Source: Methanocaldococcus jannaschii DSM 2661 (GTDB taxonomy: Archaea; AGJL01; Methanococci; Methanococcales; Methanocaldococcaceae). From it: DNA of 32,000 nt. Of this stretch, positions 5,308-29,639 are shown piece after piece (position 1 is the first letter of the stretch; every line of letters starts with the position of its first letter). The notes beneath the pieces were generated by a model. It was not told where the DNA came from. It was given only the letters and a program-made list of their open reading frames with translations, and searched no databases. The stretch is from NCBI RefSeq assembly GCF_000091665.1, contig NC_000909.1, positions 1,279,460 through 1,311,459 of the forward strand. Reading direction: 5' to 3'. The translations under genes and the position numbers were made by a program.

Positions 5308-5922
5308 ATGATAATTGAAGATAGAGAAACGTTAAAAAAGAAGGCCAACAATAGTAAAGCATAGATTTGTTGCTATGGGTTATAATCAGCAATTGCTTAG
5401 GGTTGATTATGAAAAAATCTATCCAATAAACGATGAGTTAAGCAGTAAAATTTTGGGAGTTATTAAAAATCTCAATGGAAAATCAGATATATTAGTAATC
5501 TCTGATTATGCAAAGGGATTAATTACAAAGGAACTCATGGATGACATAAAAAAAGAATTTAAGGGAAAAATCTTAATTGACCCAAAACCAAAAAATGACT
5601 TTTATAAGGATGTCTATTTAATAAAACCGAATCTAAAAGAGGCTTCCCAAATTTTAGGAAGGGAGATAGAAAATAAAGATGATGAGTTGGAAAAATCTGG
5701 ATTGGAATCAGTTGATAAATACAATTCAAACTTTGTTATAACGAGAGGTGAAAAAGGAGCTACATTAATAACTGTTGATGAAATATTTACCATGTTCCAA
5801 CAGAAGTCAAAGAGGTCATGATGTTTCAGGGGCTGGAGATACATTTATCGCAGTTTTGGGCTATGCGTTAGAGAAGGGCGTTTGAAAAAGCTAAGGAGTT
5901 AGTTAATACTCAAAATGAATAA
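5308..5922 (+). pseudogene. Eroded D-glycero-D-manno-heptose-7-phosphate kinase (RfaE/HldE domain I-like, ribokinase family)
   Basis: Pieces of the family are spread over all three frames: MIIED..KKANNSKA* (remnant of GGAANVANN), PTIVKHRFVAMGYNQQLLRVDYE...ISDYAKG...IDPK...KPNLKE..., then HVPTEVKEV, DVSGAGDTFIAVLGYALEKG and AFEKAKELVN. The total length is only about two-thirds of an intact kinase domain. Confidence 0.7.
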
Positions 5923-18791: not shown

Positions 18792-18889
18792 TAAATAGAA
18801 CTTTCACAGTTTATATGCTGATTTTGGAATTTAGATGCCAAAGGCATCACCCTTCAATAAAGTATTTTTATTTGTGAAAGTTCTATTTA
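18792..18889 (-). repeat. 17-bp perfect inverted repeat enclosing an inner 6-bp hairpin; fills the gltB-FMN / GXGXG intercistronic spacer
   Basis: taaatagaactttcaca (18792-18808) is the reverse complement of tgtgaaagttctattta (18873-18889). The inner hairpin is gatgcc-aaa-ggcatc (18834-18848). The right arm contains the TAA stop (18887-89) of the upstream cistron. Confidence 0.6.
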
Positions 18890-22549: not shown

Positions 22550-24571
22550 TTAAATTCGTTCAATCTTTACAGCACACACCTTAAGCTCTGGAATTTTACA
22601 CAACTCATCTAACGCAGTATTGGTTAATACGTTAGGATTTGCCTCAACGAAGTGGAATGGCATAAATACAACTCCTTTTTTAATGTCTTCAGTTATTCTT
22701 GCTTTGGCAGTTATCTCTCCTCTCCTTGAAATCACCTTAACTAAATCACCATTCTCAATTTTTAATGATTTGGCATCATCTGGATTTATTTCAATAAATG
22801 GTTCATTAATCTCTTCAACTAAATTTTTGCATCGTCTTGTCATGGTTCCAGTATGGTAGTGGAATATTATTCTTCCAGTTGTTAGAATGAAAGGATAATC
22901 TTTATCTGGTAGTTCTGCAACTTCTCTATACTCAACTGGGAATATCTTTCCTCTACCGTTATCTGTTAAAAACTTATCTTTATGTAAGATTTTTGTTCCT
23001 GAATGATTTTCATCTAAACAAGGCCAATGAATGCCATCAATTTTTAATCTTTTGTAGGTTATGCCTCTATATTGAGGCGTAACTTTTCTAATCTCGTTAA
23101 ATATATCCTCTACCTTATTGTAGTTAAATTTATCTCCATAACCAAGTTTTTCAGCTAATTTTTTGATTATTATCCAATCCTCTAAAGCCTCTCCAGGTGG
23201 ATTTACAGCTTTTCTTATTAATTGAACTCTCCTTTCAGTGTTTGTAAAAGTTCCATCCTTCTCTGCCCAACATGCAGCTGGAAGAACAACATCTGCCAAT
23301 TTTGCAGTTTCAGTTAAGAATATATCTTGAACTACTAAAAAATCTAAGCTTTTTAATGCCTTTTCAACATGCTTAACATCCGGGTCTGATACTATTGGAT
23401 TTTCTCCCATTATGTATAGGAATTTAATATTTTTTCCAGATTCATCTATCATCTCTGGTATTGTTAAACCAGAATTTGGATTCAAGTCAGTTTTCCAATA
23501 CTCTTCAAATAATTTATAGCCATCTTCAACCTTTTGATACCCAGGAAATACATTTGGCAAAGCTCCCATATCACAAGCTCCTTGAACGTTATTCTGCCCC
23601 CTTAATGGATTAACCCCAGTTCCTTCTTTACCAATATTTCCGGTTATCATGGCTAAATTACACAATGCCTTGACAGCATCAACACCGTGTGTAAATTGTG
23701 TTACTCCCATGCAGTATATGATAGATGCCCTTTCAGCATTTCCATAAATTTTAGCACTCTCAATTATCAGTTCTTTATCAACTCCGCATATTTTTGATGC
23801 ATATTCTGGTGTATATTTTTTAATAATTTCTTTTAATTTCTCAAAGCCTTCTGTTCTATTTTTTATGAATTCTTTATCTATCAAATTTTCTTTTATAATT
23901 ACATTAATCATGGCGTTTATTAAGGCAACATTAGTTCCAGGAATTATTTGTAGATATATATCAGAGTTTTTTGCAGTTATTGTTCTTCTTGGGTCTATAA
24001 CTATTATTTTTGCTCCTTTATCTTTGGCTCTCATTATTCTTCTTGCGATTAATGGGTGTTGTTCAAAGGTGTTTGAGCCAATTATCAATATACAATCTGC
24101 TAATTCAATATCCTCTATGCTGTTTGTCATAGCACCGGACCCGAAGCATGCACTCATTCCAGTAACAGTTGCTGAATGTCACAACCTTGCACAATGGTCA
24201 ATATTGTTTGTCTTTAAAGCAACCCTTGCAAATTTTTGTAAAATGTAGTTATCTTCGTTAGTGCATCTTGCAGATGAAAAAAAGCCAATCTCATCCTTAT
24301 AGGTCTTTAAATTTTCTGCAATTACTTCTAAAGCTTTATTCCATGTAGTTTCAACAAAACCACTTTCTTTTTTTATCAATGGTTTTGTTAATCTATCCTT
24401 ACTGTGTATAAACTGATAGCAATAATTTCCTTTAGCACATAACTTTCCTTCATTTATTGGATGTCTTTTGTTAGGATGAATACCTATGACTCTGCCATCT
24501 TTAACTACCAACCCCAAACCACAACCTACTCCACAATAAGGGCAGATAGTATTTACAATCTTAAATTCCAT
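22550..24571 (-). CDS. fdhA: Formate dehydrogenase alpha subunit (molybdopterin/tungstopterin oxidoreductase), selenocysteine-containing; in-frame UGA at 24179-24181
   Basis: Track ORFs 24179..24610 and 22550..24157 are in the same frame, separated only by TGA. The read-through gives ..[29 protein letters not shown].., the FDH active-site context. The N-terminal 4Fe-4S motif is [18 protein letters not shown] precedes ATG 24571. Confidence 0.9.
24138..24153 (-). repeat. Coding-region arm of a 16-nt perfect long-range inverted repeat (partner 24605-24620)
   Basis: The plus strand reads gacccgaagcatgcac. On the mRNA this is GUGCAUGCUUCGGGUC (codons S-A-C-F-G-S), starting 25 nt 3' of the UGA. 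Confidence 0.9.
24179..24181 (-). other. UGA selenocysteine codon of fdhA
   Basis: The plus strand tca is TGA on the minus strand. It sits in frame at the conserved C/U position of the HCAR(L/V)-U/C-H motif, and a SECIS is present in the same transcript region. Confidence 0.85.
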
Positions 24572-24604
24572 GGTTTCACCTAATTCTTTTAAATTTTTAT
24601 TTTT

Positions 24605-24620
24605 GTGCATGCTTCGGGTC
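24605..24620 (-). repeat. 5'-UTR arm of the 16-nt perfect long-range inverted repeat (partner 24138-24153)
   Basis: The plus strand reads gtgcatgcttcgggtc. On the mRNA this is GACCCGAAGCAUGCAC, 6 nt (A6) 3' of the SECIS and 33 nt 5' of the AUG. Confidence 0.9.
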
Positions 24621-24626
24621 TTTTTT

Positions 24627-24673
24627 CGCCACCTGCTCCCTTGTATTATTTATATTGGGTTCGCAGGGTGGCG
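24627..24673 (-). promoter_or_regulatory. Archaeal SECIS element located in the fdhA 5' UTR
   Basis: The minus-strand RNA is CGCCACCCUGC-GAA-CCC-[16-nt AU loop]-GGG-A-GCAGGUGGCG. It forms a 10-bp GC-rich lower helix with one bulged C, the conserved asymmetric GAA/A internal loop, and three G-C pairs. It is the only other GC-rich noncoding island in the window. Confidence 0.85.
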
Positions 24674-24873
24674 GGTGCTATATCAGTTTAAAAACTGTAA
24701 ATTTTTATCCTATTTTTTAATTTTTATGTTTATAAATTTCTAAACATATTTAAATTAATTGATTATAGAAAAGTTTTTATAGAACTTCATAGACATAAAA
24801 AAGTGAGAACTTTAATTAGTAAAAAATGAATATAAATTAGCAATATTAGAACAAAATATGATAGGGGAAAATA

Positions 24874-29180: not shown

Positions 29181-29639
29181 CTAACTTGACAACTCCATTT
29201 CATAAAAATACTTGCAATTAAAAAAAACAACAACTGGGATAAAAAACACTAAAGCAACTGTTATTGGAGAGGCAATATTATGCTCATCCACATATTCGAT
29301 AATTTTTAAAAGTTCAAGAAATATGGCTATTGCAGACATATTTCCCATGAATTTCTTTTCATAATTTGATAATGGGACTCTTTTAAGGAATAAGAATCTT
29401 AATAATAAATATATCAATATAATAAATATCCAGACTGATGCAATTGGATGAATTATCTCAATCAAAAAACTAAAATTTTTCATAATCAACCAATTTATGA
29501 GAAAGGCAAGAATCACACTTAAAATACTAAAAATCATTTTTAGTCTATTCTCTTTAAATCTTGGAAAATAATCCATCAATTTTAATCCAGTAAGCTTTAT
29601 GAATATCAAATAAAATCCAAAAGCAAACACTACTCCCAA
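29181..29639 (-). CDS. Hypothetical integral membrane protein (about 5 TM)
   Basis: 152-aa hydrophobic ORF. The track start is TTG and the first ATG is at 29579, so the start is uncertain. Confidence 0.5.
   Translation of the reverse strand: MGVVFAFGFYLIFIKLTGLKLMDYFPRFKENRLKMIFSILSVILAFLINWLIMKNFSFLIEIIHPIASVWIFIILIYLLLRFLFLKRVPLSNYEKKFMGNMSAIAIFLELLKIIEYVDEHNIASPITVALVFFIPVVVFFNCKYFYEMELSS

Follow-up and report, generated by a model that had tools for sequence, protein, structure and literature searches.

To our knowledge, fdhA is the only gene of methanogens whose selenocysteine (Sec) insertion sequence (SECIS) lies in the 5' leader. The fdhA gene of Methanocaldococcus jannaschii (MJ1353/MJ_RS07235), on the minus strand of a window of 32,000 nucleotides (nt) of the DSM 2661 genome (contig NC_000909.1, positions 1,279,460 to 1,311,459; window coordinates are used below), shows such an element, and the sequences at both sides of the SECIS are complementary to a segment of the open reading frame (ORF) located shortly after the UGA Sec codon. 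Flanks of this kind are described for the fdhA1 SECIS throughout Methanococcales (Peiter, Einert, Just, Jannasch, Najdovska and Rother; Peiter et al., 2025, RNA Biol 22:1; PMC11881835), and the proposal made there is that the duplex positions the SECIS 43 nt 3' of the UGA. Thermophiles have longer flanks, and Table S3 of the same paper contains the entry "Methanocaldococcus jannaschii JAL-1, MJ_RS07235, 9 and 16". The feature of the window is the very instance published by Peiter et al. (2025) and is already known; the initial annotation of this DNA took it to be undescribed, a claim that does not hold. The element is the same in kind, a SECIS in the 5' untranslated region (UTR) flanked on both sides by complement of the fdhA ORF, and "9 and 16" matches exactly. 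Peiter et al. appear to have taken the duplex lengths from minimum free energy (MFE) folds, and the present analysis adds pair-by-pair covariation, metagenomic variants, negative-control paralogues and an A-rich linker. A 2026 review of prokaryotic selenoproteomes cites Peiter et al. for SECIS mutagenesis, and a term search of it gave no mention of the fdhA flanks.

Knowledge of the fdhA 5'-leader SECIS goes back to Wilting et al. 1997 (cited in PMC11881835). A bla reporter in M. maripaludis showed that a 5'-UTR SECIS is functional, and Sec insertion in vivo is shown by the reporter for the M. maripaludis fdhA1 SECIS, whereas the M. jannaschii SECIS itself is predicted (PMC11881835). M. voltae is without a 5' SECIS, and the archaeal SECIS-binding factor has not been identified so far (PMC11881835). 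The canonical SECIS of methanogens, such as those of fruA and vhuD (Wilting 1997 and Rother 2001, cited in PMC9622424 and PMC11881835), shows the same hairpin architecture as that of fdhA, a GAA/A motif between G-C clamps, but it is located 3' of the ORF instead of 5', and ORF-complementary flanks have been reported for fdhA1 only. From the 3' UTR, a SECIS works at distances of 88-679 nt, with no constraint on the spacing (PMC9622424).

The bacterial SECIS, for example that of Escherichia coli fdhF, a gene of the same enzyme family, is, like a tethered fdhA SECIS, located a few tens of nt 3' of the UGA. It is contained within the ORF, directly after the UGA, and SelB binds to it directly (PMC11881835), whereas the fdhA SECIS is in the leader and would be brought to the UGA by base pairing. 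The hairpin of the window lies in the leader, outside the ORF, and does not belong to the bacterial intragenic type. The initial annotation called the geometry bacterial-like, a loose label that fits the final arrangement but not the position of the hairpin, outside the ORF, nor the spacing, which is unlike that of a bacterial SECIS. Recoding activated by long-distance pairing is also found in viruses: barley yellow dwarf virus has a distal frameshift element, and tombusviruses have distal read-through elements. In these viruses, as proposed for the fdhA tether, a distal RNA segment pairs beside the recoding site and influences decoding. The viral pairing is required for recoding and its partner is far 3', whereas the partner of fdhA belongs to the 5' leader, and the single reporter tested does without the pairing.

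Pairing arms and SECIS of the fdhA leader

The plus strand between 24138 and 24153 (GACCCGAAGCATGCAC) is the exact reverse complement of 24605-24620 (GTGCATGCTTCGGGTC), as the initial annotation had reported; the spacing is 451 nt. On the transcribed minus strand, the 3' flank of the SECIS, GACCCGAAGCAUGCAC (24605..24620), pairs by perfect 16-nt complementarity with ORF arm A, GUGCAUGCUUCGGGUC (24138..24153). This arm contains the codons S-A-C-F-G-S, starts exactly 25 nt after the UGA and ranges from +29 to +44, the U of the UGA being +1. An A-rich single-stranded linker, AAAAAA (24621..24626), separates the base of the SECIS from the 3' flank; these positions also agree with those first annotated. 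The structure had been described as one helix, and a second arm was missed. The 5' flank, UAUAGCACC (24674..24682), is located directly 5' of the SECIS and pairs with ORF arm B, GGUGCUAUG (24128..24136; codons G-A-M; +46 to +54), through 9 bp, eight Watson-Crick and one G-U (24682-24674 :: 24136-24128). Only one C (24137) is found between arms A and B. Both flanks are complementary to one contiguous ORF segment, as described by Peiter et al. (2025), and the leader reads as the antisense of 26 coding nt, split in the middle by the SECIS and the A6 linker.

Pairing of both arms gives a two-armed three-way junction. It closes off some 450 nt as a loop and seats the base of the SECIS 41-42 nt 3' of the UGA, next to the position of about 43 nt proposed by Peiter et al. 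(2025). The loop and the position of the SECIS behind the recoding site, both anticipated in the initial annotation, agree with this geometry. The A-rich linker (GAAAAAAGAC) is nearly invariant across the 12 SECIS-positive loci presented below, the 5' side is without a linker and the ORF arms are 0-1 nt apart. The linker on the 3' side only, together with the 0-1 nt between the ORF arms, defines the geometry of the three-way junction. A discussion of this linker or of the resulting geometry was not seen in the available part of the text of PMC11881835.

The SECIS is a 47-nt hairpin (24627..24673, minus strand), located 56-102 nt upstream of the fdhA AUG. It shows the arrangement CGCCACC-C-UGC-GAA-CCC...GGG-A-GCA-GGUGGCG, with a GAA/A kink-turn-like motif between G-C clamps. 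Its predicted fold has an energy of -19.3 kcal/mol and contains the expected motif (CGCCACC.CUGC-GAA-CCC...GGG-A-GCAGGUGGCG), and the same fold is obtained within a 621-nt context. As in other methanogen SECIS elements, an unpaired GAA on the 5' side is opposite an A on the 3' side between G-C clamps, and the hairpin belongs to an untranslated region, to judge from promoter-like sequence upstream, of an mRNA with an in-frame UGA at the Sec position. In the alignment of the 12 loci, SECIS helices 2 and 3 covary, with both sides changed in 8 of 13 pairs and 89-100% of the cells paired. A search against Rfam gave zero family matches at E <= 1. By folding, the 25 nt adjacent to the UGA and the ORF arms form no local SECIS-like hairpin.

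The coding sequence of fdhA (22550..24571, minus strand) has its AUG at 24571 and its stop at 22550 and contains 673 codons, codon 131 being the in-frame TGA (24179..24181). The window ORFs 24179-24610 and 22550-24157 share one frame across this TGA, which is found within HCARL-U-HSATV and is kept in 12 Sec-type orthologues. It aligns with the Cys of the Cys-type homologue L090 (HCARL*H versus HCARLCH). The FdhA homologues are named formate dehydrogenase and carry the Pfam domains PF04879, PF00384 and PF01568, so that molybdopterin oxidoreductase domains, in the homologues, go together with Sec at the active-site position. The gene encodes a Sec-containing formate dehydrogenase alpha subunit (FdhA), and its 5' leader carries a SECIS of the methanogen type.

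The whole junction, with the 9-bp helix, the SECIS and the 16-bp helix, is present in both the MFE structure and the centroid of the 621-nt 5' segment (z = -4.25). At 85 °C, it is among the few structures left in the MFE fold. When the two strands are folded together, the predicted gain from pairing is -37.2 kcal/mol at 37 °C and -13.7 kcal/mol at 85 °C. Thermodynamics and the covariation reported below are the basis on which the duplex is predicted to form in the cell.

The window contains 32% G+C. Perfect 16-nt inverted pairs are common in it; they are found in three places, and at least one is found in 53% of dinucleotide-preserving shuffles. If the pair must contain 8 or more G+C and its arms, counted without overlap, must lie within 2.2 kb of each other, none of 500 shuffles has one. 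Analytically, about 5e-4 such pairs are expected at a threshold of 8 G+C and about 1e-5 at one of 10 G+C. A chance match had at first been estimated as far below 1e-3, a value that is sound when the composition and the distance of this pair are taken into account and too low for 16-mers at large.

Orthologous loci and covariation

Orthologous loci were gathered from genomes and vent metagenomes with a 130-residue N-terminal FdhA fragment, through the encoding contigs of the closest relatives and by a scan of metagenome contigs. With a full-length Sec-to-Cys protein query, Cys-type Fdh proteins of distant phyla came out above the genuine Sec-type orthologues, probably an effect of the in-frame TGA, which would split their tblastn alignment; a query N-terminal to the Sec codon avoids this split. 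The full-length genome scan gave a sole usable Methanococcales locus, that of Methanocaldococcus sp. 16A (L001), and no encoding contigs are on record for P0009 and P0016 (M. voltae). The arms were located by direct search for complementary stretches, as RNAduplex applied to whole upstream regions gave mostly long interior loops. The SECIS-positive set contains 12 loci: the window, L001, L086, L089, L081, L083, L144, L142, L141, L143, L147 and L146.

In all 12 SECIS-positive loci the 3' flank is complementary to an ORF segment ending 41-42 nt after the UGA, and the 5' flank is complementary to the codons next to this segment. For most of the loci, ORF arm A begins 25-26 nt after the UGA; where an arm is shortened or bulged, its end falls at the same junction. 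With the window as reference, L089 shows the 3' flank AGAUCCGAAGCACGCA and the ORF arm UGCGUGCUUCGGAUCU, with two synonymous ORF changes, both compensated in the UTR, and with a CAA variant of the motif, as reported for M. vulcanius. L081 and L083 show the 3' flank GACCCAAAGGCCUCC and the ORF arm GGAGGCCUUUGGGUC; here the protein changes from MSAC to LREA and the leader tracks this change. L144 shows the 3' flank AGACCCAAAGGCUUCCC and the ORF arm GGGAAGCCUUUGGGUCU. In L142, L141, L143 and L147 the arms are shortened or bulged. L146, which is M. maripaludis-like, shows a 3' flank of 5 + 5 bp around a bulge and a 5' flank of 6 bp.

L146 also contains, about 105-120 nt upstream of its AUG and 5' of the 5' flank, a second copy, UAUCUGAACCAAA, complementary over 13 nt (two of them G-U) to the ORF segment targeted by the two flanks. 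This copy could be a mutually exclusive alternative pairing or a chance repeat.

Three loci were used as negative controls: L085, a paralogue of Methanotorris formicicus (P0007) with a TGA; L145, which is M. voltae-like and also has a TGA; and the Cys-type L090. In the upstream sequence available, none of them shows a 5' SECIS or comparable complementarity. The flanks are thus present in 12 of 12 loci with a 5' SECIS and absent from these three, in agreement with the conservation described by Peiter et al. (2025). The SECIS of L085 and L145 must be elsewhere, presumably in the 3' UTR, which is beyond the end of the loci sampled. The start codon of L085 follows the end of another ORF by 15 nt. 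One more locus, L087, encodes an N-terminal part that is 87% identical to the window protein, with an ORF arm identical over 16 nt and a TTG start.

Pairs were counted on an alignment (A1) of the leader and ORF segments of the 12 loci. Of the cells, 84% are paired; sliding the partner by 1-3 columns lowers this share to 30-40%. Changes on both sides are found in 17 of 41 pairs, a number reached by none of 500 shuffles. The 17-bp helix between the 3' flank and arm A shows both-side changes in 8 of 17 pairs and 86.9% of its cells paired, on par with the SECIS stems. In the helix of the 5' flank, the core GCACC::GGUGC hardly varies, with a single unpaired cell among the 12 loci, and the pair next to this core switches between A-U and G-C together with the Ala codon, GCU or GCC. 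The energies of the cognate leader-ORF duplexes sum to -351.7 kcal/mol; permuted partners average -243.9 kcal/mol, and none of 20,000 permutations reaches the observed value. The alignment of orthologues, suggested as a check in the initial annotation, thus shows arms that differ and stay complementary, and the complementarity is maintained by compensatory change in the Methanococcales fdhA genes with a 5' SECIS. Covariation shows selection for pairing and implies no particular purpose.

Probable transcript start and other repeats of the window

A candidate archaeal TATA box, TTTATAAA (24729..24736, minus strand), is located 57 nt upstream of AGCACC, and the same TATA-like box is found at equal distance in L081 and L083. 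Given this conservation, a start about 25 nt downstream of the box would place both flanks and the SECIS inside the transcript, and they are probably transcribed as 5' UTR. A literature search for usable transcription start-site data for M. jannaschii fdhA found none. A Shine-Dalgarno-like GGUGA (24576..24580, minus strand) is present ahead of the AUG at 24571, inside the loop of about 450 nt and outside both arms. The proteins encoded next to fdhA match M. jannaschii MJ1354 and NAD synthase exactly, which identifies the gene as MJ1353. The divergent intergenic region between fdhA and MJ1354 contains an imperfect inverted repeat of 31 nt (77%; 24721-24751 and 24771-24801), which overlaps the candidate TATA box of fdhA. 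This repeat could be a regulator binding site or merely low-complexity AT-rich DNA.

Another complementarity of the leader, of 20 nt and 85%, is found between 24700-24681, just 5' of the 5' flank, and ORF positions 24418-24399 (codons ~51-58). It was rejected as probably due to chance, since it is AT-rich, its leader part folds locally in the MFE structure and it is not conserved in L081 and L083. The longest perfect inverted repeat of the window is 17 nt long, TAAATAGAACTTTCACA (18792-18808 and 18873-18889), and has a 64-nt spacer with an inner palindrome, GATGCCAAAGGCATC. A perfect 16-nt AT-rich inverted pair is also found at 5401-5416 and 29476-29491, 24 kb apart, which fits the shuffle-based chance expectation.

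Possible roles of the leader-ORF junction

The junction probably acts as a tether that holds the SECIS of the 5' leader near the ribosome decoding the UGA, with a modest gain in Sec insertion per mRNA. This mechanism, which is that proposed by Peiter et al. (2025), would in effect make the SECIS a part of the coding region, about 42 nt 3' of the UGA. A ribosome with the UGA in its A site would cover the mRNA to about +12 to +15. The helix, which starts at +29, would lie beyond the covered mRNA and would be intact, as the initial annotation also supposed; the leading edge would be some 14-16 nt short of it, and the junction would persist during decoding. It could then present the SECIS, and any factor complex recruited to it, close to the decoding ribosome, and a modest rise of Sec insertion per mRNA would follow. 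Each ribosome that reads through would melt both arms, and the junction could re-form behind it.

Several observations weigh against this tethering role. Bla activity in the M. maripaludis reporter is equal with either type of flank, 385 ± 77 mU/mg with non-complementary and 405 ± 75 mU/mg with complementary flanks (PMC11881835), so positioning is not required in that reporter, and the functional weight implied by the initial annotation is not borne out there. With complementary flanks the bla mRNA is about 3-fold lower and the activity per mRNA about 2-fold higher (PMC11881835), but this 2-fold gain is a ratio that hangs on an unexplained 3-fold drop of the mRNA. M. maripaludis S2 and X1 were scored without flanks, and the 5' SECIS of Methanopyrus is also without them (PMC11881835), which makes the tether dispensable in some lineages. 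The metagenome locus L087 (OFDI01006557.1, 1030 nt) has the same ORF arm and no SECIS in its 143 nt upstream, where neither a complementary arm nor a Shine-Dalgarno sequence is found; a rearrangement or a chimeric contig could account for this. The 12 loci are related and contain about eight distinct arm haplotypes, so that the shuffle statistics overstate independence. The fold predictions ignore ribosome traffic, and the parameters at 85 °C are extrapolated. The start of the fdhA transcript is deduced from promoter-like sequence, and in PMC11881835 it was likewise assumed (-300). The published data suggest that the effect of the tether is at best modulatory, about 2-fold per mRNA, and existing experiments weakly support the functional claim.

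Two other roles fit the covariation equally well and explain the fixed UGA-proximal position less well. The junction might mainly set the fate or expression of the mRNA, as a target of RNases specific for double-stranded RNA or as a translation-dependent switch that couples stability to UGA read-through and hence to selenium supply. Complementary flanks cut the reporter bla mRNA about 3-fold with total activity unchanged, and RNases specific for double-stranded RNA were raised by Peiter et al. themselves (PMC11881835). Covariation fits pairing for any purpose, and the target site also encodes the highly conserved FGSGAM, a slow-evolving anchor that would serve any of them. This role leaves the fixed target site about 25 nt after the UGA in 12 loci unexplained, and we consider it rather unlikely. 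It is doubtful, too, that the arms are a folding scaffold which stabilises the basal SECIS in an AT-rich leader at high temperature, with the location relative to the UGA being incidental. The flanks are longer in thermophiles and mutagenesis shows that basal-stem stability affects SECIS function (PMC11881835), and at 85 °C the UTR alone is predicted at -3.1 kcal/mol, against -17.2 kcal/mol with the ORF segment. A local extension of the stem, as in the 3'-UTR SECIS elements, would be a simpler solution. Moreover, the M. maripaludis fdhA1 SECIS placed in the 3' UTR without an ORF partner is as active as the fruA-derived minimal SECIS, 428 versus 426 mU/mg (PMC11881835). A functionless 16-mer match, due to chance or to the decay of an inverted duplication, is very improbable, and the covariation in effect refutes it. 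In its favour, perfect 16-nt inverted pairs are frequent in shuffles and the flanks are not required in the reporter (PMC11881835), but none of the 500 shuffles matches the composition and distance, and each of about eight arm haplotypes has a matching partner, with both-side changes in 8 of 17 pairs that include the compensation of synonymous ORF changes.

The tether is under purifying and compensatory selection and yet is unneeded in the reporter, which points to a possible native function that the reporter could not see. Tentatively, this could be a requirement of the tether for Sec insertion at high temperature or low selenium, or a coupling of mRNA stability to UGA read-through, and the linker and junction may form a recognition surface for an archaeal SECIS-binding factor. 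With respect to PMC11881835, the increment consists of the compensatory change in environmental variants, the negative-control paralogues and the conserved A-rich linker, and no new question is opened. How an archaeal SECIS located in an untranslated region signals to the ribosome at the UGA is a standing question, for which an RNA tether is a natural clue. The re-analysis adds evidence of compensatory evolution in the fdhA genes of the Methanococcales and sharpens a puzzle already in print, a pairing under selection that the reporter can do without.

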